A stretch of DNA of 17,929 nucleotides from Chlamydiota bacterium (GTDB lineage Bacteria; Auribacterota; JACPWU01), in assembly GCA_016196885.1 (NCBI GenBank), contig JACPWU010000065.1, positions 1-17,929 of the forward strand, written 5' to 3'. The first letter of the stretch is position 1, and each line of letters opens with the position of its first letter. Positions 1 to 17,929 of the stretch are shown here, one piece after another. Under the pieces are notes generated by a model. It was not told the DNA's origin and searched no databases. It saw only the letters and a list, made by a program, of their open reading frames with translations. The translations under genes and the position numbers were made by a program.

Positions 1-3000
1 CTGATCAAAGAAAACCTCCTTAGTTCGAACTAAGCCCATCGCTTCAATCACTTCGTGATCTGCCTCTGGAAATAGGATGTGCGCAGTTTCATGCACAATT
101 GTGGCCTCATCCAGCAGCTCTACCTGAAAGAATATTTCCTTGCCCACAGGGTCCGTGAAGCCAACCGCGATTGTGGGTAATCGCATGGCCTCCTGTAGTA
201 GCATGACGAGGAAGAGAGATACCCCTAAACTAAAAATCACGACCTCAAAAATCGCCCATAGCCTTCTCTTTGTCTCTACCAGGCCAAACACGCCAGCCAC
301 CATCAGGAGTACCGAACACACCATAGCATACAGAAAAGAAGATCCGTGGAAGAGTAAGTTGAGCACGGTGAGTGGAAAGACGTTATGCAAGTGATGAATT
401 TCTTCCGGTGAAAGGCTGGGTTTCACGCGTCGTACCAGCAACGCTTGTTCTTTAACGATCATCTCCACTTGTTTATCGCCAAACCCCCGTCCGACGAGTT
501 CTTCAGTAATCTGTTGCTCCTGACTTAGGGAACCTCGCCCATCCATGCCCTTTATCCCTGTGTTGACCATGAGGCCACCAAGTGCAATACCAGAGAACAA
601 AGGGAGCATGAGCAGTCTGCTTCGAACGCGATGCCATCCCCCATTACCCACGGTGTTAGTTGGGGTCATTAAAGAAACTTCTCCGGTTTCTTTAAGCCGC
701 ATTAAGGATCTAATTTTATTTCGCGGCGAATCCGGCAGACTTTGCCAGAAGGCATAAATCCCTAGAAGAGCGAATGTCCCCAAAACAGCTCCCCATATCA
801 TATTGGAAGATCCGAAAAGCCCTAGCACGCCCCGACTAAGCTCGACCGCCCCAGCCTGATGGGATGCCAAAAGAGCAATCGCCGCGCCCGCCGCTAAAAA
901 TAAGGCCGTGATAAACTCTGTCCCTCCTGAACCTTCTTCACCGAGCGTCCTCGCGCTCCCCGATGCCCCATCAACCACCTGCAAAGTCATGACTTGATCT
1001 TCATCGGGCGCTGACAGTGAAACGGGGCCCTTATCATTATATTCTTTCTCAAAGCGGTAAAAAAAGCCTGGATTTAAAATAGTATTGCCTATCCGCAAAT
1101 TATCGTTCGTCAGCCTTTCCATCTTTAAATCGTAGGCGCCAGGATCAAATTCTGTATATCTATCCAGCGGCACATCTGAAATAAACAATACCCGGCTGCC
1201 ATCTTCACACACTTTTTGCGCCTTTACAGGCCCCTGATAAAAACATTTGTGGGGTTGAAAAGAAAAACTGGTGCTCCAAAAAACATCCATGCCGCGGCTC
1301 AAATACTTTTCTGCTGTTGCATCGGTATCATGGGCATCTCCAATGTAATAAATAATTGCATGGGTTATTCCATCCATTTTAAAGCGAATCAAAGACTTAA
1401 CGCTATCTTGTGGCCTCTCCCTTAAGATACTTCTTTTTGCGCTATAGGGCAGTCTTATTCTTTCTCCACTCATACGATCTAGATACTCCAGAACTCCTCC
1501 TCCTTCACTCCCAATATCCTGATGTTTGTAAAAGACTTTTTCGGTTCCATCATTTAACGTATAAATCAATCCACGCCATTGTGTAGATTCGTATAAAAGA
1601 AATGACCGTTCTGTAACAAAAGGTATTTCCAGGTCCTGAATAAAGCCTGATCTCTCCAGATACTTCATTTTTTCGATTAAGCCATAAGGCCAATCCGCAT
1701 CCTCGCTTACATAGACATGCTGGCTGGGGATCCCCAATGCTTTAGCGACTAAAATGAGGCTAAGATCCTCCCCTGCCGCGGGATAATAAAACCTTACAAA
1801 ACCGTGATTTTGCAATTCCGGAAGGCTGTCAAAAATTTTACGAGCCACTCCTTGGTAGTCCAGTATGGAATTATTTGCTCTGCCGAGCAAATCCGGACTA
1901 AAAGAGCTGGGTTTCTCTGTGTAAGGACTTACAAAATTTTTCTGCGCAGCCCTCAATAATTCAAAAAAGAACAAAGAATTTCTTGTATCAATCACTGTCT
2001 CCAATGTTTCCAGGATATGCTCTATTAAGACGCCTTCAGGTAATATATGAAGGACAGCTTTGACATCCTGAATCGCCAACTCCCTTGCTTCAAAAAGCTC
2101 CTGCAGCATACTGTGCGTAATTCCCACACCCAAGAGGATTTGCAGAATCTCCTTTTTCTTGCTGTGGTTTTGAGCCAGCTTTTCAAAAAAGATCCGATTA
2201 ATCCCGATAGCATCACCCCTCCTCTCAAAAAGTTCATTTGATTGATCAAGAGATACAAGTGTCACAACCGGCGGCCACTGGACAGGCGGATTTTTTAAGC
2301 TGATATCCCTCGCCTCAAGTCCTTTTTTGATTAACGTCATGAGTTCCTGATCCGAGGCAATAACTCCGCTATCTTTCAACTGTTGAATTAATTCTTCCGA
2401 AACAGAAAATCGTGTTGAATGATATGGCAGCAAAGCATTCCCGTCATTCAGTCTTAAATCCTCGAATTGTATTCCATGATTGACAAGCATCGAAACAGCA
2501 TCTTGTGAATGATCCTTTTCATGCAACGGTGCAAACGAGACCGATTCCGGGAGTTCACCGATTCTAGAAAATTCATCTTGTCCCAAAAATTTCCCTGCAT
2601 CTTGAGGGTGCAAATAGCTTTCAAAAAATTCTCTCACGACCTGGGATAGATCCACGTTATCCGGATTTTCAATTGCAATAAATTCGCTGAATAGGTCATC
2701 ATAATCAAATTTAATCCCTTTACTTGCTAAAAATTCCTTCAGCCTTCGGTGCCAGTCATTATGAAGGTTTGCAGGCAGGGTTTCCCCTATCTGGTTTAAC
2801 TCTTTAACAAAGTCATTTCCACCACCTGCTATGCTCTGCAACTGAATCAGTTGTTGCAGCCGCGCGGGAAGATATTGGACCAGATCAAACCGGACAAGGA
2901 GGTTGTTGATAAAGTGGATGCCAATGGGTGCGATAAGGCTGAATAATCCAATGAGGGCGAGATCCGCAACGATAGCCGCTGTGATGGTTTGTGCGGGAAC

Positions 3001-6000
3001 AAGAACAATCAACGCACCAATGATAAATGGCACTGCCGCAAACCATCCCATCGCCCTTCCAAAGTTGAGATGGGCACGGTATTCGACATTCGCTTTGCTC
3101 AGGATGACGTCCTGAGTCAGATTGCCACGGCCTCCTTCGGCAAGCTCTGGCTCCCTCGCAATGACGCCTTGATGTTTCACCCACGCCCCATAATGCGTAT
3201 CAGCAAATTTTCTGGCCTGGTATTCGATGACAAGCGGCATCAGCGCGATGGCAAGAATTCCTCCAGGCAGGACCAGAGCCGGAGCAAGGCTTGATATGCT
3301 GAAAACACCCACCATCAGAGCCCCAATCCCCGCCAGCGTCAGTCCCCTAAAAACCACTTCTTCCCATTGATCTACAGCGCTCAATACCACATTCGCCGCT
3401 GGCTCCGGCAAATACCGCCTGATAAATTCATAGAGCTTGCTCTTATCTAAAATGGATTGCGGTGTCCCCTCATCATTCCAAAAATAAAGCCCTTCCCCAT
3501 GCGCCAGGGGAAATAAAATTGCGCCCAGAGCTAGGCCGATGGCTCGGCCTGACATCAAATCCAAGCCCAGAGTAAGATGAAGTAGCCAAGCAAGCCCTTC
3601 CATTAAAATACCAGTAAATCCAATCTCCTCCCCCCCACTCCATTTCGCTTTCTTTTCATCGGGAACCCCAAACCGATCGAGAAGGCGATAAAAGAAACGC
3701 GTGAGACCAAGAGGGTTTTCACTGTCACTACTTGTTTCTTTGATCTCTAAAGCATGCGACCCGAAATTTGGATTATCTTTGACAAAAAAGTTCCCAGAAG
3801 TAGTTTGGTTTCCAGGAAAGCGTCGATCGGTTTGAATGGGCTCCCCATCTTTCAGACTTTGGAGTCTGATAAAGCGCTCAACGCTTCTGGGTTCATAGTC
3901 TGACGGAGACTTCAGGGAATTTGCCGGAATATGTTGTGGATCGGCCTGGGCAACCATCGACAAACCCATTGAAAATAAGACATTTTCTACTTGTTTTAAG
4001 AGGGCTTGCTGAAGTCCTTGACTTTGGTATCCAGGGGCAAGATAAATAAAATTAGACCCCACAAAAGGAAGCCCATTTTGATCAATACCGAACCAGCATT
4101 TGAGCCAGCCAACTTGTTTCCCACCCCTCGATTCTGTACTCATTTGAAAGAAAAAGGTAGTTGCATCTGTAATCCAGCGATGAGCATTTCTATCATAAAT
4201 ACCATTGCCAAAAGCATTACCCACCTTAGGGTCCGATGTATTACAACAGTGAGCACCATCTGAAAATCTCAAAATTTCAAAAAGATCCCGTTTATCTACA
4301 TAATCTAAATAGACAACAGATGAAATTTCTTGCGCGACAGAAGTCTGTGATGAAAAATTTGAAAAACTTGCTATCAAATCTCCTGCTGTTTCATCGAAGC
4401 TTGCTTTCAAAACTCTCTCATCCATACCAAATTTTTTGGCAAGGTCAGAAAGAAAAGTTCTAAGAGCCTCTTCTGGGGTTATTCCCTTACGTTGCGCACG
4501 ATGTTCCAGAGCGCGAATGACTGTCTCAATGCCCCTTTTGGCGCTTAAGATATCCCAATTTTCGAGCCATGTTTCTTTATTTTTAAGATCGAGTGAATCT
4601 TTTTTGTTTTGAAAGAAAGCCTTGTAATGAGGATTGTCTCTAAAGAAATAACCCCAGCTTTTTGCAGCATCTTTATTCCATTTGATTAAGAGTCCGCCCT
4701 GGAATAATCGTTCGTCAAAATCCCGTATTTTCTCAAACATACCTTGATCACCCACCTGATGGGCCTGGGAAACAATTGCTTCAACCTCCTCTTTCCTCTG
4801 GGAAATTCCTTCAGATCCTTGCTTTTCTAATCGTGCAAGCTCCTTCGAAATAAAGCGAATCATGCTGCTCAATTTAAGAAGATTTGATAAGTTGGCAGAA
4901 GAAGTTTGAAAGCTTTTCTGTGCCTGTTCCCTCATCCCTTCCTGACCCTGATCTTGAGAAATCAAACTATCAATGCGTTGAGGAATAAACCTTCCCTCTC
5001 CATCTAAAAAGGCAGAATTAGTAGGCAGAGAAGGGCGTCCCTTTAACAGAAAATCCATCATCTGGCGAGCGTCCATTTCAGGAACGCCTGCCTTTACAAA
5101 CGCTGATCTGAGGGTGACGTTGACGACCGATGTGTCTTCCAAATCTAAACTTTGAGAAGCCTTCTGAATAATGGCTTTAAATCGGTCATAACTGATAGGG
5201 CTAACCCCCGAATATGAAAAGGGAGAAGGGCGCAAGCAATAATAGGCCAACATGAGATGTTCATCCTGGACAAGTGCTCTTACCATGACCCGATAATCTC
5301 TTAAAGCATCTAATGCCGTTAACTTTTGCTGACCTTCTTTAATCTCTGCAATCGTCATACTTGCGTTACTGACCTTCTCCAACAAAATCCATGGAGGGAC
5401 GATGCTTCCTAATTCTTGATGTGCCGCAGTGAGAATGGGCAATGAATCTTCTTTAATATTAAGATACGCTTCGTCGAGAATTCCTGCTCGTGCCAAACCG
5501 CCGATCACTTCTATTCTTAAACCAGGGTCTATATTAGATTGATAAATAAATGGGTACAGGGCTGACAGACTATGACTTCCTAAAATTGCTAGAATAATCA
5601 ATCTTTCTTGATCGCCCACATCCACATAAAGCTGATCTCGTTTAGAAACACGCGACAGCACAGACTGTGCAACGCCACTCAAATAACTCTGAGCATCATT
5701 GAACCCCGCATGAGTCAGCCAACACATGATCTTTAAAGCCTTTTTAAAATCATCATCTGGACGCTTCCAACGTTTCATTTCACCGCAAAGATAAGCAACA
5801 TCTGTCCGATCTACTTTTCCTTGATCCATGCTGCGAATTTTGACAATTCTGGCTCTCTGGGAAAGGGTCAGACTCTCTTGTCTCATCATGCGATAACACT
5901 GATCTGGATTTCCAAGAATCTCTTCTAAGGAAAATATACCCGCACTCTTCAGTCGACTTAAAACCTCTGTGTTTTCAGGTTTTAAAGGTTCCGAGAAATC

Positions 6001-9000
6001 AGTTAAAAGTCTTGATAACATGATTTGATCATGAAAATAGGAGGTCACGGCATCATGATGCGAAACAAGAGTTTCTACAAGCCTGGCCCAGGCCACTCGC
6101 ATTTCTAAATCTTGATCTGTAAGTCCTCGCTTTACAAGGCTCAAAAAATCATCATCGACCTCTTCCCTTGTCACAAATCCTTTGCTGACCATCACCTCAA
6201 GACTACGAATCACTTTGGAACGAACTGAAGAGTCAATATCACTTTTTACAAGCCCTACAAATCGACGAAAACCATTCTTTCGCTCTAAAACCTCACCTCC
6301 TAAGGCTCCCTTCTCAATCAAAATCCCTAAAGCAATGGCATTGCTTGAAAAACTTTTTCTGGAATAGTGGATCTCGTAAGGTTCTAAATTAGAAAATAAA
6401 TTATCTAAAGGAAGATGCTTTTCTACAAATCTTGCATTCCATACCCCAACTTCTACCAAGATCCCAATCATTTCTGCCGTTTCTTCGTATAGTATTTTCA
6501 AGTCCTTGTTGATCAGCAGCCTCGCAATATTATTCCACAGTTTCTGCGGATCCAAGGAGCGGATCTCCTCTTCATATTGACCTGTCTCTTTTAAGGCTTT
6601 TAGAACGCTCGCACACAACTGAGCATTTCGACCCACACTAATCCGATCTCCTAAAACATTCATTAAATCGTATGCGAGAACTTTCTTTTTTGAGATCCAA
6701 CGACTTCGGATAAGAATTTCAAGGTATTTAAGAATGGAAGTTTCGTTATAATTATGGTGTTGAAGAGAAGAGAGCCAATGGGGTAAAGAAATTTTTCCAA
6801 CAACTTTTTTTCGAGGTATCCATTCTGTATCTACCAACAAGGCAAGCACCTTCAGGGCATTCAAAACATCCTCGCCTTTCCTTCCTTCTCTCAAATAAGG
6901 GATCGCCGTGCTTGCGATTTTATCCATAGCCCCTTTAAATTTTTCATCCACCAAACCCATCTCTATTAATAACCTTAAACTTTTTATAGGAGTTTCTCCC
7001 TCAAATCCAATAAGATAACGAGATATATTCCTCATCCATTGATCTATAGGAAGCTCTTTCCTTAAGATATCTGCGCTAACCCACCCTTTGTCCATCATCA
7101 ATTTTAAACACTCGAGAATATTGAAAATATAATTTCCCCTAGCAAATTGAGCTGACTGCATGAGTGATCTGAGAACTCTTTCTCGATCCTTTTCATGTCC
7201 TTCAAAGAAATCTCCTTGGAGTAAAAACCTTGCTGAATCAGGAGCAAAAAAGAAATAGTCTAATTTTTTTATAGTTTCGTTTAATCCATGAAAAAAATAT
7301 TCTGCTCTCTCTAAATTTTGATCGAGCATCTGAGAAATAGCAGTAGCTGTTTCAGACTGTGATTGAGCTCCCACCATCCCCGCAGGCCATTCAAACTTTC
7401 TGGCAAACCAGGTGCTGTAGAGGCTGTGCAAAATGCCTGCCGTGAGAATCACAAGAGTGCTGGACACAATTACAGGTAAACTCCAAATCAAAGAGATTGC
7501 CACAATCGACAAAAGAGCCACAAGCCGAATCACCAGCCCTGCCCCAGAAAGTTTTCGTAAGGCCTTCCAAAAATCTCGTCCTAATGCCTGTCTTTTTTTA
7601 AATTCGAACTTTCCATTCTCCCAAAAATAAAACCCCTCCCCATGCGCCAGTGGAAACAGAATACCGCTCAGGCCCAAACCCATCACCCGTCCTAATGTCA
7701 GATCCCAACCCCAAGCCAGATGAAGCGCCCAAGCCAAACCCTCAATCAAAACCCCCGTAAATCCAATTTCCTCCACCCCACTCCATTTGGCTTTCTGTTC
7801 ATCAGGAACCCCAAATCGATCGAGAAGACGATAAAACCAAGGCATGAGGCCAAGCGCTCGACCTTGTGAAGGCATCCTAGACGATAGATTTGCTGCATGC
7901 ACAGTTCCACGAACGAGGGGGTTCAGGCCTGCTGGAAGAGAACGAGCACTGTCTGTGGATGGCGGCGGCTTTATTCCCAAATGCCTTCCCAAATCACCCA
8001 GGGGCAGTGTTGGGCGTGTCATCTTGAGAAGACCCAGCCGCGTCACAACGTCCTTCATTTCATCTTCATTGGGCTCGGTGTCAAATAAAACAAATCTTCT
8101 ATAATGTTTGACATCTTCTGTCCCAATGCCGACGAAGATCATGTTCACGCCATATTCTTTTTCAAAATTCTCAACTTTTTTTTCTAATTGTCTCCATTGT
8201 TCTGGAGTGGGAGGGTCGCCAAAGGCTCTTTCCCCTCCATCGGTGAACACAATTTCCACTTTGTTCTTTTGCTTCTTTTTATCCGCATATTTTTGTTTTA
8301 AGCCTTCAATTAAATGCAGGGTATTAATCCCGCCGCCGTCCTGCATGTTCCACATTCTATTGGGACCGGTTCTCACCTTCTCAACATCCCCCGTTTCGTT
8401 GAATCCAAACACAGGATGATAATCTTCCCCGATCACACCGAGTGCGTGTCCGACACTTCTATGGCCCTGTCCCGCCTTTCGCATGAGGGCAGAAAAGAAT
8501 TTCGTAAGTTCGGTGAAGGATCGAACAAGGTTATCTCTCATGGTGATACTTCCGCTGCCATCCACGGTTATTCCCATCCATAGTTCAGGCTCTGCATCTT
8601 CATAGGCGGTTGATTTAATGACGCGGGACATTCCCAGCTGCCACCTTCGCATATCAATTTTTCCAATCCCACTTCTTTTATAAACGTCCTCACCCTGAGG
8701 CTCTGAGGCAAAGAGGGCCATGAGCCGTTTTGCAAATCCTCCCAGTCTCTTGCCGTATTCTTCAAGCCAATCCCCGCTCACTATTTGGCGTCTCCCCGCT
8801 GAAGGCGCCTCTCCTTTAGATTCGCCTGGTTTCCCTCCTGTAGCCTTCCCTTCTTTGTCATGCTCTATTTCTTTGGCGTGGCCCTCACTTCCGCTTTCTT
8901 CCTCTATTTCTATGTTTTGCTCAATTTGCCTCCCAGATGCTTCGTCTAAATCCTCCATTTCCACATTTGGACCTTGCGCCAATCCGTCTGCAATTTCATG

Positions 9001-12000
9001 GATGCTATTTCCTGTTCCACGACCCCCTGCCATCTTGTATCTTCCGCCCTTAGCGCTTGATAAATCGTAATCACCTTGAAATTTCTTTTTCCAGGCCTCT
9101 TGATACATGGCAATCGCGATATTTCTGACGGTTTCATCATTTAATTTAAGTCGCTCAATCGCGTTTAAAATAGCTTGGGCGCGATCATCTTCAAATAGGT
9201 CTGTGATTTCTTCTATGCGTTTTAATTGATCATCCTCTGCATTTTCTCGCTTAAGCATTCTTAAATAGCCGTTGAGGATTCCTTTGGCGGCCTGGCTGTA
9301 ATAGGATTTTTCGTCTTTGTCGGTCTGAAGCTGTCTTGCCAACTCATTTTTTAAATATTCTTTTGGGTTAAGTCCAAAAATGAGGGGGAATAACATGGAG
9401 AAAAGTTCTATGTTGTCATGGAGTTTAATCACCTCTTCTCCATGAAGCCTCATTTGATCTATGAAATGTCCCAGTTCATGAGAGCCAACTTGTGAAAAAG
9501 CGCTTTTCTCGTTCATACCGCTTAAGGCGCTTTTGTAAGCCAGAACGTAATCTCCTCCCTTGAATACTCCCCGTGCCGCTTCTTCCTCGGCAAAGGGGTG
9601 CTTTTCCACCAAATAGGCGTGAAGTGGGAGTTGGGCTTTGTATTTTTCAGCGTTGATTCCCAATTTCTGGAGATCTGATTCTTCGAGTGCGAGGGTTTCT
9701 AAAATAGGTTCGCTGTGAATAAGAAGATAAAGTTTATTCTCCTTTTCAAGGGCAAAACTGAATATAAACCGTTTAAGCGATTCATTTTTAAGGACGATGC
9801 TTCGCAGTTGATTCATGGCTAATTCAATTCCTGTCTCACTCACTTTTTCTCCTTTGAATAAGGCATGAAGATTTTTTGTCCATGCTTCAAGTGCGAAATC
9901 AAGTCCCTGTGTCAGGGTTTCGATTTCTTGCTGCAATGATTCATCCATTGTCCCAGCGCTCAGGGCGAGGAGATAATCGCGTAATACATGATCCAGAAAA
10001 TGTTGGTATTTTTGTAGGGGACTAGAAAGGGTTTGAATCCGATCCAGCTCTGTTCTTATTTTTGAAAGGCTGTATTTAAAATTCAGGTCTTTTTTTATTT
10101 TGATGGGCGGTGCTCTTTCTTTTTCTGACTTTTGAATCGTTCTTTCTACGGTGCCTTCCAAGCGAGGGTAGGTTTTGTAGGTCATTTCGCCACTTGAGGC
10201 AGGTTTCAACTCTTCTATCGGCAAGGCGTTATCAGAATGATATGTCATCGCAGTTCTCACTTGCGCGAAGGATTCAGATCGGTCCAGCTCTTTCATTCGG
10301 CGTGTGTGGAGCCCCATCAGGATTTCCGCGAGATCCTCCCTCTTCACCCGTGGAGATTCTAAATAGCGGTGCAGAACGGGAACCCATATTTTATGGGCTG
10401 ATTCAAGGAGGTCTGGCGAAAAGGTTGAACGACCTTCATAAGTACCCGCGGGATTACCTGCTAAGATGAGAATCACCTCTGGATCAAGCTCTACTTCAAA
10501 TCGAGCACCAGCCAGATAATAGGTGAATTGTCGTCTGCCCTCAAACAGGGGTCTGAGGCAGTGCATGATTTCAGGGGCGGTGTTAGCCTCGTCTATGAAT
10601 AGAATTTTTCTTTGGGTGTGACTCGTCATTCCTTCAGCATTGTAGTATTGACCATTGATTTTACCCAGTTGGCTAAAGAAGCCCTTCATTTGTAATGAGA
10701 GTTGACGCTGGGAGCCCCTCCCTTGCCCCGCTTCCATTCGAGCGATGATGCTGTCCGGTTCCATTCCTTTGTACGCAGTGAGTGTGTGGACAGGGATGCC
10801 TGTGATGGCGCCGAGATTTCGGACAAGGGTGCTTTTGGACCCGCCTGTTTCACCCATGAGGACAATAGGTCGCGGTAAAATGATACGGCCCTGTGTGTCC
10901 CGAATGCGCCGTGTGGCCCACATCACACTTTCCATCACTTCGTTAATCACTCCGTAATGTTTGAGGTAATCCATTTTTGGTACTTCTTCGGGAGGCAAGG
11001 CCGTTTCATTCGGCAAAAGAGGCATTCCCCCGATGGACTCAATGAGGCTTAATTCTAATGTGAGATGATCCGCATCTTCCCGGACTTTTAAGCCTCCAGA
11101 AAGCTCCATTTCTCCGCCTTGATAGAGATAGCGGTTAAACGGGGTCTGAATCGTGTATCCACTTTGCGTCTTTTGTATTTGAATTCCATTGGCAAATGTT
11201 TTCCCGTTTTCCAGCTCTGATTTGGTTATTGGAATCGTCACCGTTTTTCTTTTCACATCTCTTAACTCGTTTTCTAATGCTTGAATAGTTTGAGCGTTGA
11301 TCCCTTCATATCGAAATACTTCTGTGATGAGACGTTCTAAATAAATGGATCTATCAGAGGGTTTGCCGACTTCATTCATGCCTTGTCCGTAAAGGCGAAG
11401 GATGTTGCACAGCACCGTTCTGACAGAATCTATTTCGGTGACGCCACTTGTCATCTGGCGCTTTTTATCCCATAGCACCAGCTCGGCCAAATGTCGAGCA
11501 TCCTTGACGCTGTATCCATATCGAGTGTTCAATTTCTGGCGTTCGATGTTGAGATGGAGATCATGAAGTCCCATGTCCAAATACCACGCCAGTTTTGAGG
11601 ATTGAACGATGAGCGTTTTTTCTTCTTCGGTGAGACCCTCATGATATCGATCAAGGTAGCTCTCCATTTCATCCTCTTCTGTGACAGCGCTCAGGGCAAT
11701 TTTTTGGAATCGGTTGTAAAAGGGTGATGAAAATTGTTTGGTACGAGTGGATGCGGTTGAGGCAACGATGTGAATATGCGAAGGTAAACGGTAATTTTTT
11801 TGCTCAATGCGGATCTCTCCTGTATTTAAAAAATCGTTAAGCCGTTCAAGCTCTTCGTCTCTCAAAAGTTCGAGGCTAGAGAGATAAAGGATTTTGTCCG
11901 GTTCTCCTTGAGAAGGGGGCTTTCCTTCTTCAACCAGATGTTCGCCCAAGAAGCCCAATAAAGTCGCTTCTTCATCGGTTCCTACGGCCAGGCCGTTTTC

Positions 12001-15000
12001 ATCCATAGGACCCTGTTTTAGGCCTCTTTCACCGACCAGTTCCGTGCTGCTTGTAAAAGAAGTGCCATCAAAGACCGCGATTTCCATCCCTGTGACACGA
12101 CCTAATTCTTTGACGAGATCGAGGGGGTCGCTCCCTTGTTCGGCAATGAGTAGGCTGTGAATGGGCTGTGTGTCGCTTTGCTGGCCTGTGCTTCTGGCCA
12201 AGGCCTTCAAGGCCCCCATTTGGCTTTTCACCGGCACAAAATAAGGGGCGTCTTCTCTCTCTTGAACTGAAGAAACATATTTGGGTAATCGGACATTTCC
12301 AATATCCACATGGGTTCCACCGTCTATGATTTTTGTATCATTCTGCCACTCCTGAATATAATTTTTAAATCCCGGGAAAAACTTTTCTACAATTTCTATG
12401 GCGCCTTTTGCGTCCTCTTCATTGAATTGATAAATGTAATTGAGCAATATGCCTTCATAGAGATTCCCGCCCTGCTCGATCAAGCTCGCGATGCGAATAA
12501 GTTCTCGGGGACTGACCCCATATTGATAAGTGTAAAGCTCGTTAAACTCGCTTAATTTAAATTGTTTGACCTCGTCTAATAGAGGCCCTCGATAGGTTTT
12601 ACGGAAGGTCTCGTCCATAATCCATTTCATGGCGATGTGAAGATTAATGAGCGGATTTATTTGGGGCTCGAGCGATCGGGTTCCTTCCCCTGAATAATAC
12701 CGGATCAGCCGTTCATAACTTGCTTGGCTCCATTGATCGGTGATCCAGATTTTTTTTGCGTTCTGTTCGAGGCTTAAGGGCAGTTCTTGACGACTTTGGG
12801 TGATGTCTGACGGGTTATAGGTTGCTATAACTTTGAATAGGGGATGGATTTTAACGGTGCGTTGTATGGGGATCCCTTGATGATAGAGCCCTAGATCAAG
12901 CGTTTCACTCCGTATAATTTGCATGAGAAAGCCCATGAGCTGTATCGCCTGATGGGAGATATTCCCTTCATCCAGACAGAAGACGCCTCCCTTTTCTATA
13001 TAATCTAAAAATTCTGTGAGAAATTTATTTTGATCGTCTCTCGTTGCCGTTAGAATCCATCGCTCATTACGCTGCTCTAATTTGCCAATGAGTTCACCTA
13101 GGTCAATGTCTCGATACATCGAGAGCTTGCGGAATTTTAAATTTAGCCTTCTTGCCAGGTCTTCTGCCAATGCGGTCTTTCCTCCCCCCGGAGGGCCTTC
13201 CAGCAAAATGACATTGCGATCATTTGCGAAACCCATTAGCAGGGCCTCCATGGCGCTGATATTTTCCTGGACCTCGGCCAAGTATTTATTTTTCTGGGCT
13301 GCTTCAAGCGACTGATATTCTGTTGGATATTGCGTGCCATTTATTTTTAAATAAATCACTCCCTCATGTTCGATGTATTTTATTTCTTCAATCGCTTCCG
13401 GAATAAGGTCCTGACGGTATTCGTCTCTTAAGCCGATACCCAATGTGTTATAGGCTATTCTTTTCATTTTTTCAGCGCTTAAAGTTTCCCCCTCTGACGC
13501 CTTCTTTAATGTGTTCACATATTCTTCAAAATCACGCCAGCTAAGTCGGGTATGGCGGTAATGCCCATCCTCTATTTCTTGCCCATATCTTTCCCAAATC
13601 TTAAGGGCATATTCTATGGCGGAGTCTTGAAGGGTCCCCTCAGGTAAATGCTCCGCGATGTAGTGTCTAATCCAGGCATCACAGATTTCGCTCGTGAGAT
13701 GGACTCCCGAGTAGCGCGACAACTCTGCCGCACTCATGGGCAATTTGTCATTTAAAGAAGGCTCTCTGGGTGTGTAAATAAGTCCAACAATTCTAAAATT
13801 TTTGGGCAGTCTCAAATAGCGCCCTTCCTCCAGCAATGGATTTTCTGCATACTGCCTCGCTAAAGCGGGGGTGAGTTCAAGGCGTCCTTCTTGTAACGCA
13901 CGGTTTAAACCGACAGCCGTATCTGCATTCATTTGTTGGAGGTTGTCTATCACCAGGTATTGCGTTTGCTCGGAACTCGCTTGGGCCAGTTCGACAATTT
14001 TAAGCACCGTTCCCGCATAATTGCGAATTTCTCCCGTTTCACCTACACTCACACCCCCCGTCATTCCCTCTAGTTCTGTGAATTCACTCGCGGTGATGTA
14101 ATGCCTCTGGACCTTTTCATTTTTCTTTTCAATGTGGCGTTTCAAGAGTTCAAGCCCGTCTGCCGCGTCGCTCCCCTGAATGAGGATAGGACCCAGCCTA
14201 GCGTCTAAAATCAAATCAAACGCATTTTCGTTACTATAATTTTGCGTGTTAATTTGATGCTTCGCAAAAATAGGGCTTAGCCCTTGACGCACCTCAATTT
14301 CCATCCACATTCCCCACAATGTGATAAGCGCAGCACGTTGATAGGCCTCACCTATCGATTCTCCCTTTTCCCTTAAATGGCGAGTGAGTTTAATGGTTCG
14401 AATCGCGTCTCTTATCGTTAAGACCTGATAGAAGCTTGTAGTCTTCCCTGTCTGGAGCGCTTTTTGTAGGTCGTAATAGAGCTGGGCTAGTTTTTTGCTG
14501 AATAAAGCCCTCCTTTCATCATCAAGTTCAGGATCGTGGACTTTAAATAATTGTGCCATCAAGCGCTCAAGTTCGGACTTGATTTTGTCTTGATAGAGGG
14601 GGTCTTCCTCACCATAGTCATAACCGACCCAGAAATTTTTAGAGTTTCTGGTCAATGCTAAAGGAAGGGGGCCCCGGGCTCGAAAATCGTCGGGATTGAT
14701 ATCTGCGATGTAAAGATTATCGGGTGAAATTGTATTCGTGTAGAAAGGGTCGCCTGCGGGATCGATTTTTGCAATTTCAGGCATTTGCCGCCTCTCATCG
14801 TTTCGGGCAATAGGTGTTAACCAATAGCCCAGGGCCTGCCTTTGAACGGTGTTGAGCTCACTTGTGTGAATGACATGCCCCCCCGATCGTTCCGCCTCCA
14901 AATACGGGGTGTCATTCACAACTTGCATGCCTTCTAATCCTGGCTCTAACCCACCGCGAAATTCCTCAAGCAGGGTCTTGCGATGAGCGGTGTAACCGGT

Positions 15001-17929
15001 GACGCCATAACCCAATATTTTTCCTAACACTTGCGCAAGTTCCGTCTTTCCTTCTCCGCTAGCACCTTCAAGGACGGTGAAAAGGCTTTCCTCCCTTGAC
15101 CCGCTTCCTCTGACATAAATTTGCCTTACCCATTGCCCGATCAGTCTTTTATCCTGTTCCCTCAACACATATCCATAAAGATTTAAAATCATCTCTTCCA
15201 CCCTTTCTTGCGAATGCCCAGCAGCATACCCTAAGAACTCATTCCCAATCTTCACAGGGACTCCATCTGCAATCAGTTGACTGCCTCCTATCCTTAACTC
15301 GCTCGTTTCATAGGGATCAGGCACTTCAGAACCTGGATAGAATAAATTCTGAAACACTTCCCTGAAATTCCTTCGGTCCTTCTCAAATCTAAATCGAAGA
15401 ATCATGTAGCGATAGAGTTCTTCAGCCAAGATGGGAGATGGTTCAAGTTGCGGATTTTCTGCACAGCGGCTTTTTGCGGTGAGGGCAATGTTAATGAGGT
15501 CTTGAGGATACATTCGAAATGAGCTCTGTTGCCATTCTTGATGCTGGATCTGGGTGTAAAATTGGCTTAATTTTTTTGCGGATGTTTCCTCTAGATTTAT
15601 TTTGTTCTTTAACATAGCCTCCATGTCTTTTTCACTCAGCTCACCGGCCTTGTGTTTAATCACGCGATTTAAGAATGCCTCATCTTCTAATTTGCCCCCT
15701 TCGGCCATCGTGAAAATGATGTGTAAATTCTTCGGGATCCGGTACCTCACTCCTGTTTTGGCGATGAAAAGCTCTTTCTCCCATAAAATGGGATTAAATT
15801 CCACACGCAAAGAACCTTCAGCCGCTTCAATGTTGTCCAGGACAAGGTAAATGGGTTTCCCGCCATTAGAGTCAGCCTGAGTGATGAGTCTGGGTAGTAT
15901 TCCTTCGCAAGGCTTCATTTGTCCTGCTTCATCTGGTAAGTCCATTCCAAAAAGTTCAGCACGATCACTGTAACCCGATAATGATGCTCGGTAGGCCGTG
16001 CCCCCGCTTTCTTGGGCCAGCTCAGCCAATGCAACTTTCACACTGTCGGCACTCCCATCCGCTTCCACAACAAGACTTGCCTCGCCCATTTCGCAGGCCC
16101 TTTTAAGGCTCCAATACATCGCTTCATAAGATTCCACTTGATAAAATCGGTTGGAATCTGTTCGCTCAGCTTCAAAAGATCTCATCCAGTATTGATGCAG
16201 TCTCTCTTTTAAATTTTCACCCGATTCTCTATCGCCCAACGCAAGTTTTATAAATAAATCCCTGTGTTCTCTCATGAAACGCTCTAAAATATTCTCTAGC
16301 CAGTTCTTTTCTTCGCCAAAGAGACCGCCGTAAACCGTGTAGACCGTCATCACAAATTTGCCCATGACATCCTTGGCTGCAATCGTTTCATCCTCGCCTA
16401 CGGATAAGTCAGATAAGTAGCGATGAATGAATTCTCTGTGCAACTTGATTAGGTCTCTTACGCTGGTGATCCAGAATGGATCATCCGCATGATAAAGGGT
16501 TGCATATTCCCTTATCTCTTGATCCAGATCCATACTCATGTCAACAATCTCTCGAATATCCCTTTCTGATAAATAAGGCTCTTTCCCGTTTAATTGGTCT
16601 AATATCATTTTGACAATGCTGCTCTTATGAAAATCTTCGAAAGGGACACCTTCCATGAGAAGGCCATATTTATGCCATAAGGCATTATAGATGAGGCTTA
16701 ATCGCTCAGGATTTGTCTCTCTTTCCAGCGCTTCAAATGAAAGTTTCTTTAAGTCCAGACCCTGAATAGCACGTATCCATTGTTGAATCGTTTCATTCGC
16801 ATCTTGAGACTCTGATAGTTTATTCACCATCCAGGGGGTCAGCTGAATTTGGTTTTGGGTCAAAGCTTGAATGATGGGGTGGTCTATAAGAGATGCATAA
16901 CCATCAATCGACGATTGAATGAGAAGATCTGAAGGCTTTCCTAACGACATTATAAGGAGCCCTATTTGATGGCAGAATTGAGCAAATTTTGTCCCGCGGT
17001 TATAATCGTTTAACGACGATTTCTGAACACTCAAAAATTCTTTGATACAACTTTTAAAAGTAAGAACATATAGCTTAGCTACCTCTATATCTGTAATATA
17101 CGGACCGCTATGGATGAGGGCAGTTAATATATCCTTTACCCCGCCTCCGGCCTGCTTGATCCAAGCAGCCACATCCCCTGCCTTCTTTAACACATCTTTT
17201 GCATTGCCTTCTGTCACCTTTGGGCTTTTAAAGAGTTCCGTGATTGCGCTAAACACTGCCTCAATCTCAGGGACTCCGCCTCCTGCCCACTTGATCAACC
17301 GAGCCACATCCCCTGCCTTCTCTAACACATCTTTTGCGTTGTCTTTTGTTACCTTTGGGCTTTTAAATAGCTTGGTCACACCCGATGATATTGCATCGAA
17401 TTCTTCGTCGCTTAAATATCTATTTGAAAATCTAAATTCATTCAGCCAATGAGTTAAAATCGTTTCTTTCGTGTCCTTTCCTTTTCCTCCCACCATCCCC
17501 GCCGGGAAGCTTGTGAATCTCCGTGCGAATCTTGTGCTGTAAAGACTATGCAAAATCCCTGCCGTGAGAATTACAGTACCCATAGATACAATCGCGATCA
17601 TGACTGTCGATGGCAAGTTTAAAGATAGAAGTGTTACGGTAGAGGGCAAATCGCTAGGGATTAAAGGTGTGAATAAAGGGAGCAGCGCAGCAATCCGAAT
17701 CACCAACCCTGTCCCAGAAAGTTTTGCTAAAGCCTTCCAAAAATCTCGTCCTTTAAAATCTTTTCTTTCCTTAAACTCAAGTTGTCCATCCTTCCAAAAA
17801 TAAAGCCCTTCCCAATGAGCCAGTGGAAACAGAATACCGCTCAAGCCCAAAGCCATCACCCGTCCTAATGTCAGATCCCAACCCCAAGCCAGATGAAGCG
17901 CCCAAGCCAAACCCTCAATCAAAACTCCC
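1..17929 (-). CDS. Internal fragment of one giant ORF (5,976 complete codons, no start or stop in the window). It encodes a multi-cassette, multi-pass membrane protein containing a midasin/dynein-like hexa-AAA+ plus MIDAS/VWA unit.
   Basis: Triplet-by-triplet scan of the minus frame (codons on + coordinates 3k-2..3k) found zero stop codons over 17,928 nt. The other five frames are broken (longest ORF in the supplied track is 136 aa). In-frame motifs occur along the whole length: Walker A GPPGGGKT (13174-13197), GASGEGKT (15043-15066) and GETGGSKS (10831-10854); Walker B VFCLDE (12967-12984) and ILFIDE (10588-10605); MIDAS DGSGS (8548-8562); HELGH (9466-9480); HETAH (79-93). Confidence 0.93.
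49..921 (-). other. TM cluster (~6 predicted helices) ending in an HExxH motif, possibly a membrane-embedded zinc metalloprotease-like domain. It continues beyond the window.
   Basis: Hydrophobic segments: FITALFLAAGAAIALLAS, MIWGAVLGTFALLGIYAFW, LLMLPLFSGIALGGLMV, FPLTVLNLLFHGSSFLYAMVCSVLLMVAGVFGLV and LWAIFEVVIFSLGVSLFLVMLL. Then DEATIVHETAHILFPEADHEVIEAMGL, with HETAH at 79-93. Confidence 0.45.
960..2894 (-). other. Soluble region of about 640 aa with no motif I can assign
   Basis: Continuous in-frame translation, for example ...NDWHRRLKEFLASKGIKFDYDDLFSEF...HGFVRFYYPAAGEDLSLILVAKALGIPSQHVYVSEDADWPYG...ITHAIIYYIGDAHDTD... It has a globular-looking composition and no long hydrophobic segments. 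Confidence 0.4.
2895..3360 (-). other. Additional TM-helix cluster following module copy 3
   Basis: Hydrophobic runs: GLTLAGIGALMVGVFSISSLAPALVLPGGILAIALMPLVI and GWFAAVPFIIGALIVLVPAQTITAAIVADLALIGLFSLIAPIGIHFI. Confidence 0.6.
3478..3711 (-). other. Conserved TM module, copy 3 (first hairpin only is conserved)
   Basis: LGLTRFFYRLLDRFGVPDEKKAKWSGGEEIGFTGILMEGLAWLLHLTLGLDLMSGRAIGLALGAILFPLAHGEGLYFW. The last 74 aa (RFFYRLL...YFW) match copy 2 at 56 of 74 positions by hand alignment. Confidence 0.8.
3955..4260 (-). other. Possible GNAT-like (acyl-CoA N-acyltransferase) segment
   Basis: ...QVGWLKCWFGIDQNGLPFVGSNFIYLAPGYQSQGLQQALLKQVENVLFSMGL resembles GNAT motif A (hhV.P.yqgkGhG..Ll..h). The Q/RxxGxG/A signature is imperfect (QSQGLQ). 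Motif-level resemblance only. Confidence 0.3.
5300..7100 (-). other. Degenerate alpha-helical (HEAT/ARM-like) repeat region
   Basis: A recurring motif [LI]xxLh[ED]xG[hydrophobic]xxxxh appears every ~40-60 aa: LKLMMDKGWVSADIL, LRLLIEMGLVDEKF, LKVLALLVDTEWI, LKYLEILIRSRWI, VLKALKETGQY, IGILVEVGVWNARF, LGILIEKGALGGEVL, IRSLEVMVSKGFVTREEV, LSRLKSAGIFSLEEIL, IGGLARAGILDEAYL. Confidence 0.45.
7366..7854 (-). other. Conserved TM module, copy 2 (complete, ~4 predicted TM helices)
   Basis: LGLMPWFYRLLDRFGVPDEQKAKWSGVEEIGFTGVLIEGLAWALHLAWGWDLTLGRVMGLGLSGILFPLAHGEGFYFWENGKFEFKKRQALGRDFWKALRKLSGAGLVIRLVALLSIVAISLIWSLPVIVSSTLVILTAGILHSLYSTWFARKFEWPAGMVGA. Positions 7648-7756 match 17821-17929 at 106 of 109 nt (hand count). 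Confidence 0.8.
8040..8590 (-). other. von Willebrand factor A (VWA) domain with MIDAS motif
   Basis: ELWMGITVDGSGSITMRDN (DxSxS at 8548-8562), MQDGGGINTLHLIEGL (conserved Thr position), KVEIVFTDGGE (TDG Asp) and VNMIFVGIGTEDV. These have the order and spacing expected of a VWA Rossmann-like fold. Confidence 0.8.
8790..8964 (-). other. Acidic low-complexity stretch (about 30% D/E by hand count)
   Basis: VEMEDLDEASGRQIEQNIEIEEESGSEGHAKEIEHDKEGKATGGKPGESKGEAPSAG, located between the AAA+ region/linker and the VWA domain. Confidence 0.7.
9300..9600 (-). other. HExxH (zincin-like) motif region inside the post-ring linker
   Basis: GVFKGGDYVLAYKSALSGMNEKSAFSQVGSHELGHFIDQMRLHGEEVIKLHDNIELFSMLFPLIFGL, with HELGH at 9466-9480 and a further His 7 residues after the second His. 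Confidence 0.45.
10370..10870 (-). other. AAA+ module 6 (canonical Walker A and Walker B)
   Basis: PIVLMGETGGSKSTLVRNLG (Walker A at 10831-10854; the GETG.GK[ST] form is the midasin/RNF213-style P-loop). RKILFIDEAN (Walker B at 10588-10605), then LRPLFEGRRQFTYYLAGARFEVELDPEVILILAGNPAG. Confidence 0.85.
11690..12160 (-). other. AAA+ module 5 (degenerate P-loop)
   Basis: SLLIAEQGSDPLDLVKELG (12121-12156) sits at the P-loop position. Walker-B-like KILYLSSLELL follows, then LNDFLNTGEIRIEQKNYRLPSHIHIVASTAS...FYNRFQKIAL. Confidence 0.55.
12740..13215 (-). other. AAA+ module 4 (canonical Walker A and Walker B, likely hydrolysis-competent)
   Basis: VILLEGPPGGGKTALAEDLARRLN (Walker A at 13174-13197), GGVFCLDEGN (Walker B at 12967-12984), then IPIQRTVKIHPLFKVIATYNPSD. 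This is a typical MoxR/AAA_5 layout. Confidence 0.85.
13740..14200 (-). other. AAA+ module 3 (degenerate P-loop)
   Basis: PILIQGSDAADGLELL (14155-14187) sits where a P-loop is expected. Walker-B-like QYLVIDNLQQ (about 13939-13959) follows, then NRALQEGRLEL...RYLRLPKNFRIVGLIYTP. Confidence 0.55.
14620..15100 (-). other. AAA+ module 2 (intact Walker A, non-canonical Walker B)
   Basis: TVLEGASGEGKTELAQVLG (Walker A at 15043-15066). The Walker B position reads GHVIHTSELN. Downstream LYIADINPDDFRARGPLPLALTRN resembles the AAA_5 'atmNP...L..Al.nR' segment. Confidence 0.7.
15600..16110 (-). other. AAA+ module 1 (AAA_5/midasin-like fold signature, degenerate P-loop)
   Basis: Pseudo-P-loop LVVEADGSADSVK (EADGSADS at 16042-16065) lacks the GK[ST] residues. 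Walker-B-like IYLVLDN (LVLDN at 15832-15846) is followed by EFNPILWEKELFIAKTGVRYRIPKNLHIIFTM. That matches the AAA_5 pattern (LDEin...L..ll....l.ip..ge.i....nFrlfatmN). Confidence 0.6.
17105..17400 (-). repeat. In-frame tandem duplication, 2 copies of a 45-49-aa unit (135-147 nt period)
   Basis: Copy A: FDAISSGVTKLFKSPKVTKDNAKDVLEKAGDVARLIKWAGGGV. Copy B: FSAITELFKSPKVTEGNAKDVLKKAGDVAAWIKQAGGGV. The nucleotide core ccgcctcc...cacatcccctgccttct.taacacatcttttgc...cctttgggctttt is seen at 17141 onward and again at 17276 onward. Confidence 0.85.
17485..17929 (-). other. Conserved TM module, copy 1, N-terminally truncated by the window edge (predicted ~4 TM helices)
   Basis: Translation: GVLIEGLAWALHLAWGWDLTLGRVMALGLSGILFPLAHWEGLYFW..GRDFWKALAKLSGTGLVIRIAALLPLF..VMIAIVSMGTVILTAGILHSLYSTRFARRFTSFPAGMVGG. 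These are hydrophobic stretches separated by K/R-rich loops. The module is paralogous to 7366-7854 and 3478-3711. Confidence 0.7.

Follow-up and report, generated by a model that had tools for sequence, protein, structure and literature searches.

A Membrane Module Recurs Three Times within One Giant Reading Frame

We analyzed a 17,929-nucleotide stretch of DNA (hereafter, the window) from an uncultured Chlamydiota bacterium (GTDB lineage Auribacterota; assembly GCA_016196885.1, contig JACPWU010000065.1), which lies within a single giant gene encoding a membrane module that recurs between large soluble regions. Frame 2 of the minus strand is free of stop codons over 5,976 codons and spans the whole window; the remaining five frames contain 276–392 stops each. 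The window closes the frame at neither end, so the gene must extend beyond it. By exact look-up, the encoded protein is GenBank MBI3267371.1, "AAA family ATPase, partial [Chlamydiae bacterium]". The same fragment, with two amino-acid differences, is found in another assembly (GCA_016178005.1, contig JACOUD010000022.1, 17,928 bp). Residues are numbered such that residue i begins at window position 17928-3(i-1). A scan of the window against Rfam returned no RNA family.

An initial annotation, made from the DNA letters alone, had described three in-frame occurrences of the module. These are as follows:

Window 17488-17928, minus strand (residues 1-147): module copy 1, its N-terminal side lost at the contig end; FPLAH at residues 34-38 and HSLYS at 127-131, terminating in PAGMVG.
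Window 7369-7854, minus strand (residues 3359-3520): module copy 2, complete, with LGL, an amphipathic helix, four transmembrane helices (TMs) and PAGMVG.
Window 3472-3711, minus strand (residues 4740-4819): module copy 3, first hairpin only; EEIGFTG at residues 4767-4773 and FPLAH at 4806-4810.

The coordinates and offsets given in the annotation proved exact. Protein self-BLAST aligned copies 1 and 2 with 63% identity over 126 residues (E 9e-45), copies 2 and 3 with 65% identity over 57 residues (E 4e-21), and copies 1 and 3 with 66% identity over 47 residues (E 1e-11). A DNA repeat finder independently returned the same repeat families with spacings of 4,143 and 10,173 nt, and the start positions that the annotation gave for copies 2 and 3 (7854 and 3711) are the very bases at which the conserved LGL begins. 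Also as described, copy 3 lacks the second hairpin (…VILTAGILHSLYST.FAR.F..PAGMVG), which copies 1 and 2 both have. In copy 2, the N-terminal half consists of LGL, the amphipathic helix FYRLLDRF, TM1 with EEIGFTG (residues 3386-3392) and TM2 with FPLAH (3425-3429). The C-terminal half comprises a β-hairpin and a loop rich in lysine and arginine, TM3 with R3468, TM4 with HSLYS (3501-3505), and PAGMVG; the segment KFEFKKRQALGRDFWKALRK is located at residues 3440-3459.

We compared substitutions between the copies. Copy 3 differs from copies 1 and 2 by 0.85-1.65 synonymous substitutions per site (dS), with a nonsynonymous to synonymous ratio (omega) of 0.12-0.19. TM4 of copies 1 and 2 retains 78% identical residues despite saturation of its synonymous sites (proportion of synonymous differences, pS, 0.78). 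Judged from these patterns, the module copies are old and under purifying selection. The first hairpin of copies 1 and 2 has 94% DNA identity and a dS of 0.13, suggesting recent gene conversion of this part. The contig end (window 17764-17929) falls within the stretch in which copies 1 and 2 are 90-94% identical in DNA. Because both public assemblies end at the same place, in this near-identical stretch, the assembly break was probably caused by the repeat.

The Module Is Rare

To see which other proteins carry the module, as the initial annotation had suggested, we built a HMMER profile from the three copies and ran it exhaustively on 1.84 billion representative proteins. Apart from the window protein itself, only three proteins matched (P0003, P0004, and P0005). 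P0003 (1,350 residues, E 1e-11) is encoded in the same metagenome-assembled genome, on contig JACOUD010000031.1; its only hydrophobic region is the module, which is preceded by a soluble N-terminal part and followed by a C-terminal part containing a NAGPA (phosphodiester glycosidase) domain. P0004 contains at least 2,521 residues, is cut at the contig start, and has its module at about residues 1414-1560, between long soluble regions. We had considered P0005 as a stand-alone small protein and dropped this view; its frame is still open where the 1.2-kb contig begins, and P0005 is thus probably the C-terminal end of a larger protein. In P0003, P0004, and the giant protein, the module is therefore in line, with soluble regions on either side of it. 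Outside the module, P0003-P0005 and the giant protein share nothing.

P0003-P0005 keep EE, FPxxH, and Hxxx(N/D). In copy 2 numbering, the residues invariant across the family are G3360, L3361, R3371, G3373, A3380, G3384, E3386, E3387, F3390, G3407, F3425, P3426, H3429, G3439, R3468, and H3501.

Further searches added no carriers. A word-indexed protein search with copy 2 returned no matches, and the same search with a six-sequence profile returned P0005 only. The lone match to a genome contig was spurious, as it came from a β-helix protein that shares "GVLMEGLAW". Scans of metagenome contigs with the module copies and of viral contigs gave no match. A degenerate EE…G…FPxxH DNA pattern picked out 48 metagenome-contig loci; these were chance matches, none of which the module profile recognized.

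The Module Resembles the Core of CPBP/Rce1 Proteases

In proteases of the CPBP/Rce1 type, EExxxR occupies one membrane helix, and two further helices contain conserved histidines (PMC6588880). In MmRce1, the conserved active-site residues are E140, E141, R145, H173, H227, and N231 (PMC5874806), and the CPBP domain consists of four helices, TM4-7 (PMC11980579). We use EExxxR, FxxxH, and HxxxN/D as shorthand for these published residues. The module presents EExxF[T/S]G at the start of helix 1, FPxxH at the end of helix 2, and Hxxx[S/N/D] near the end of helix 4. All five sequences that extend over this position have the glutamate pair (EEIGFTG in copies 2 and 3), and FP(L/I)xH closes the second helix in six of six sequences. 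The motif-3 histidine is also invariant; the residue four positions after it (H+4) is serine in copies 1 and 2, aspartate in P0003, and asparagine in P0004 and P0005. Every family member also has an arginine in helix 3 (R3468, window 7522-7524, and equivalent positions), which may stand in for the motif-1 arginine of CPBP proteases, a possible relocation.

Hidden Markov models point the same way. Among 24,736 Pfam families, the Rce1-like family PF02517 was the only one matched by the module, in a constant register that places EE at profile positions 19-20. The Pfam gathering threshold of this family is 22.4 bits. The P0004 module alone scored 22.4 bits, covering profile positions 11-92 of 93, and residues 4735-5030 of the giant protein, which take in copy 3 and the unit that follows it, scored 22.5 bits (E 1.4e-4), the best stretch being the module itself. 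The first hairpins of copy 2 (15.3 bits) and copy 3 (13.7 bits) matched profile positions 18-55 on their own. A Pfam scan with full copy 2, P0003, or P0005 gave no match. A tblastn search of plasmids for annotated CPBP genes, made toward a profile-profile comparison, produced nothing useful.

An AlphaFold model built from six module sequences (predicted local distance difference test, pLDDT, 73.7; predicted template modeling score, pTM, 0.66) consists of an amphipathic helix and four long helices, with a β-hairpin after helix 2. A model from the three window copies alone was unusable (pLDDT 46).

These data support CPBP membership of the module at the level of motifs and profiles; structural comparison, described below, did not confirm it. 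The module is probably a very divergent, minimal CPBP/Rce1-like (Abi) domain of a rare subfamily that anchors the chain from the cytoplasmic side between fused cassettes. The initial annotation had recognized no described family in the module. The link to PF02517 revises this in part, connecting it to a known annotated family as a divergent member.

A Canonical CPBP-like Unit Adjoins Copy 3

The region after copy 3 had been called merely rich in transmembrane helices. This description fell short, as the region begins with a CPBP-like unit with a protease-like core and canonical motifs:

Window 2893-3435, minus strand (residues 4832-5012): type B mini-CPBP unit; EEVVFRG (4856), FADTH (4908), HFINN (5005); amphipathic helix LYEFIRRY.

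The type B unit has four helices and fully canonical CPBP motifs, including the motif-1 arginine, and directly follows half-copy 3. It scores 15 bits against PF02517, below threshold. In a profile comparison, its LYEFIRRY…EEVVFRG segment aligned with FYRLLDRF…EEIGFTG of the module (E 0.04), and a weak HMM domain was also obtained. On these motifs and this alignment, we regard the type B unit as a bridge between the module and ordinary CPBPs. Since the unit adjoins half-copy 3, the third membrane crossing consists of 2+4 helices.

Both Ends of the Module Are Predicted to Be Cytoplasmic

Hydropathy and the AlphaFold model agree on four long helices per full copy. Lysines and arginines are unevenly distributed: in five of the five sequences analyzed, the side formed by the N-terminal flank, the central loop, and the C-terminal flank contains 10-15, versus 0-2 in the two short turns. 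By the positive-inside rule, this distribution places both ends and the central loop in the cytoplasm. From the charge distribution, the module almost certainly has an N-in/C-in topology with cytoplasmic payloads. This orientation agrees with the ATP-dependent AAA+ payload, and the Rce1 core is oriented likewise, its cavity being open toward the cytosol (PMC5874806). Two earlier proposals, that the helix number is even (four in copies 1 and 2, 2+4 at copy 3) and that all payloads sit on the same, probably cytoplasmic, face, are thus borne out by the helix counts and the charge bias. The NAGPA domain is usually extracytoplasmic. By charge bias, that of P0003 (L004 10001-14053) would be cytoplasmic.

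The Module Separates Different Soluble Cassettes

As had been proposed, the in-frame module divides different soluble payloads:

Window 7900-17487, minus strand (residues ~148-3343): cassette 1, midasin-like, with about six AAA_5-type modules and VWA/MIDAS.
Window 3712-7368, minus strand (residues ~3521-4739): cassette 2, soluble, no confident family; weak GNAT match at residues 4586-4663.
Window 1-2892, minus strand (residues 5013-5976): remainder of cassette 3, an orphan soluble region with 5-6 hydrophobic helices at residues 5668-5915 and HETAH.

Cassette 1 has the layout of midasin: several AAA_5 modules, then an acidic region, then a VWA domain with DxSxS. Pfam found AAA_5 (E 1.7e-36, in three stretches plus further ones) and VWA (E 1e-6), in keeping with the midasin-like AAA+ unit described initially. 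P-loops are at residues 955 and 1578, with a variant, GETGGSKST, near residue 2359. Walker B-like sites are at residues 694, 1324, 1649, 2013, and 2442. The acidic stretch (residues 2985-3040) is 30% aspartate and glutamate, and the MIDAS motif DGSGS is at residue 3123.

Homologs of cassette 1 occur in other metagenomes (loci L002 and L056 and the long-read contig L055) and are 32-38% identical and colinear over residues ~395-3320. The L055 homolog begins and ends at about the cassette borders, without a module, and the next gene is on the opposite strand. Because this homolog is free-standing with matching borders, cassette 1 is a complete protein elsewhere, which supports the view that the giant gene arose when separate proteins were fused, with the modules as joints.

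The other payloads are less well defined. The possible GNAT-like region of cassette 2 remains weak, with a sub-threshold Pfam score of 20.1 bits against a cut-off of 20.7, and the HEAT-like region also proposed there found no confirmation in Pfam. No Pfam family matched the cassette 3 region. At the module carriers and the cassette-1 homolog (loci L002-L005 and L055), we detected no relatives of payloads 2 and 3.

Several other features lie within or near the cassettes. A 45-residue unit (…FKSPKVT.(D/G)NAKDVL.KAGDVA..IK.AGGGV…) is duplicated in tandem at residues ~176-245 (window 17138-17370), just after copy 1; its two copies are 86% identical in DNA and 135 nt apart. Two HExxH motifs resemble those of zinc proteases. 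One, HELGH at residue 2817 (window 9466-9480), lies between the AAA modules and VWA and is HEAGH in the L002 homolog; the other, HETAH at residues 5946-5950 (window 79-93), follows the cluster of 5-6 helices just before the contig end. Neither region matched a Pfam family. The AT skew of the plus strand changes from ~0 (positions 1-8000) to about -0.2 (8001-16000), with the step at the border of cassette 1 and copy 2, which fits cassettes that differ in composition or origin.

The L055 homolog (positions 1-20606; ENA ERZ1286166, a 152-kb contig) is full of frameshifts, as expected from a long-read assembly. Upstream are HEAT-repeat genes and a gene with a Fic domain, and downstream is a gene for a HATPase_c_2 protein. 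P0004 likewise has a neighboring HEAT_2 gene, as well as a weak HATPase_c_2 match. This co-occurrence at both sites may reflect a functional association.

The Module as Anchor and Possible Protease

In the model that we favor, the giant gene would be a fusion of once-separate proteins, such as the midasin-like AAA+/VWA machine, joined through modules. Each module would enter and exit the membrane on the cytoplasmic side; each copy would thereby staple the chain to the inner membrane and leave the flanking cassettes in the cytoplasm. The glutamates at the start of TM1, the first histidine at the end of TM2, and the second histidine at the end of TM4 would all lie near the cytoplasmic face, as in the Rce1 active site. 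Both glutamates, both histidines, the arginine, and a polar H+4 residue persist where overall identity is only 25-33%; for this reason, the module could well still be an enzyme. From this conservation pattern, we tentatively propose that the modules are catalytically competent glutamic endopeptidases.

What such an enzyme would cut is more speculative. The likeliest substrate would be the giant chain itself, cleaved at linkers or juxtamembrane sites to give co-localized, separately anchored cassettes; we consider this doubtful. The module borders are marked by the conserved LGL and amphipathic helix before the core and PxxMxG after it, and polar linkers flank them. The β-hairpin beside the catalytic histidine could dock a strand. 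Taken to its full extent, the locus would encode a membrane-anchored self-processing polyprotein, in which active mini-CPBP modules anchor the chain and cut at cassette borders, freeing stoichiometric machines at the cytoplasmic face. This complete scheme is unlikely. Precedents exist. PrsW proteins, which belong to the CPBP clan, form fusions with toxin payloads and are predicted to process these autoproteolytically (PMC3482391), and embedded peptidases have been suggested to cut giant proteins of Omnitrophota (10.1101/2023.11.21.568195).

A number of results weigh against a CPBP-like protease. The motif-1 arginine is absent (threonine in the window copies, serine in P0003-P0005), and the asparagine or aspartate of motif 3 is replaced by serine in the window copies. 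On their own, the window copies score below the PF02517 gathering threshold. NCBIfam gave no match for the module and no CPBP model, and sequence searches of the PDB with the module found nothing related (chance-level matches only, E ≥ 0.17). The predicted structure of the module alone, a check suggested at the outset, contains the four long helices; a Foldseek search of the PDB with this model, a method that is weak for short helical bundles, returned no match to Rce1 (best E 0.8), and an MmRce1-like fold (PDB 4CAD) was not recovered. Four helices by themselves may not enclose a catalytic cavity. Finally, APH-1 demonstrates that conserved glutamate and histidine residues in this clan can serve assembly instead of catalysis (PMC6588880).

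Many of these points would also be explained if the module were a CPBP-derived pseudo-protease that acts only as an anchor or scaffold, its polar residues holding the bundle together or packing modules of one chain, or of adjacent chains, against one another to tether and cluster cytoplasmic machines. Loss of the canonical arginine and the change to serine at H+4 are what such a protein might show, its four helices contrast with the 7-8 of characterized enzymes (PMC5874806, PMC11980579), the Foldseek result is in line with it, and APH-1, a scaffold component of γ-secretase, is a non-catalytic precedent in the clan (PMC6588880). However, E, E, H, H and a polar H+4 residue are invariant among relatives that are only 25-33% identical, the TM3 arginine is invariant as well, and the relatives retain canonical HxxxN or HxxxD. 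We view a pseudo-protease, the leading alternative, as a real possibility, if on the unlikely side.

The module could instead be an unrelated four-helix membrane module whose likeness to CPBPs is convergent or due to chance. Every Pfam score is at or under the threshold, P0003 and P0005 have no Pfam match, and nothing emerged from NCBIfam, PDB sequences, or Foldseek. Yet four independent sequences match a single family among 24,736 without any shift of register, each of the three motifs occupies the helix and the helix end predicted for it, and the adjacent type B unit, which is fully canonical, aligns with the module including the amphipathic helix. This makes an unrelated origin improbable. 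A repeat-driven chimeric contig, in which the cassettes do not belong to one gene, is very improbable: the contig does end as is typical of a repeat break, in DNA nearly identical between copies 1 and 2, but two separate assemblies agree to within two amino acids, the frame stays open for 5,976 codons through both internal copies, copies 2 and 3 are only 62-77% identical in DNA, and P0004 and P0003 likewise carry the module in line.

Little is settled about how giant bacterial proteins are organized, inserted, and possibly cut. Earlier studies of such proteins in Omnitrophota, a phylum of the PVC superphylum, describe many membrane helices and speculate on embedded peptidases; they name no recurring membrane module. 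The locus described here offers a concrete, testable unit, a minimal CPBP core and evidence that the four-helix domain can stand alone. If the module is active, it would represent a new bacterial route to co-localized, membrane-tethered complexes from one gene, as well as the smallest known scaffold in which to study glutamic intramembrane proteolysis. If it is inactive, a protease fold has been reused as a modular membrane staple. If the polyprotein reading were true, the gene would be to cells what polyprotein genes are to viruses, and for the first time intramembrane protease domains would be seen repeated in one polypeptide.

Comparison with Known Systems

Among the closest known systems are the CPBP/Rce1/Abi proteases (PF02517; MmRce1, 4CAD; myxosortase MrtX). 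They share with the module the four-helix core, with EE, FxxxH, and H at the same helix ends, catalytic residues that face the side where the core begins and ends, and a consistent Pfam register. The module differs in being a bare four-helix core without three or four extra helices. Its motif-1 arginine is replaced by threonine or serine, it has an invariant TM3 arginine, and H+4 is serine in the window copies. LGL and an amphipathic helix precede the core, and a β-hairpin follows motif 2. The module is also placed in line between large soluble domains and repeated within one chain.

PrsW-toxin fusions (Zhang et al., 2012, PMC3482391) likewise join membrane peptidases of the CPBP/APH-1/PrsW clan to variable payloads. 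PrsW has about eight helices, is single and N-terminal, and is proposed to export a C-terminal toxin, whereas the module is internal, repeated, and four-helical, with cytoplasmic enzyme payloads. Pfam scans to E 10 matched no PrsW family to the module. APH-1 of γ-secretase is a remote CPBP homolog with conserved polar residues in membrane helices and a scaffold role; unlike the module, APH-1 is eukaryotic, stands alone as a protein of seven helices, and has a QExxR motif, and it gave no sequence match here.

The giant proteins of Omnitrophota and other PVC bacteria ("Archaeovorins"; 10.1101/2023.11.21.568195; 10.64898/2026.06.07.730766) share with the giant protein the superphylum, great length, membrane anchoring, and multidomain character, as well as many helices, AAA_5 domains, and suggested cutting by embedded peptidases. 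The peptidases in those papers are soluble (C39 or S8), the payloads are mostly extracellular, and no CPBP-like repeated module is mentioned. No "Archaeovorins" were retrieved by the module profile from the 1.84 billion proteins.

Like midasin/Rea1 and bacterial MoxR-VWA pairs, cassette 1 strings several AAA_5-type modules together in one chain and also has a long linker, an acidic stretch, and, at its C-terminus, a VWA domain (DxSxS). It differs in being bacterial, membrane-tethered at both ends, and equipped with an HExxH motif; the likeness is one of layout.

As its domain superfamily is known, the module is not categorically new. The chained layout, which the initial annotation could not place, holds up as undescribed in the papers we searched, none of which reports a repeated in-line module in a giant cytoplasmic multi-enzyme protein. 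Relative to these systems, what is new is that the module consists of four helices alone, that its motif set is divergent, that it is extremely rare and, above all, that it is used repeatedly and in line as punctuation between cassettes.

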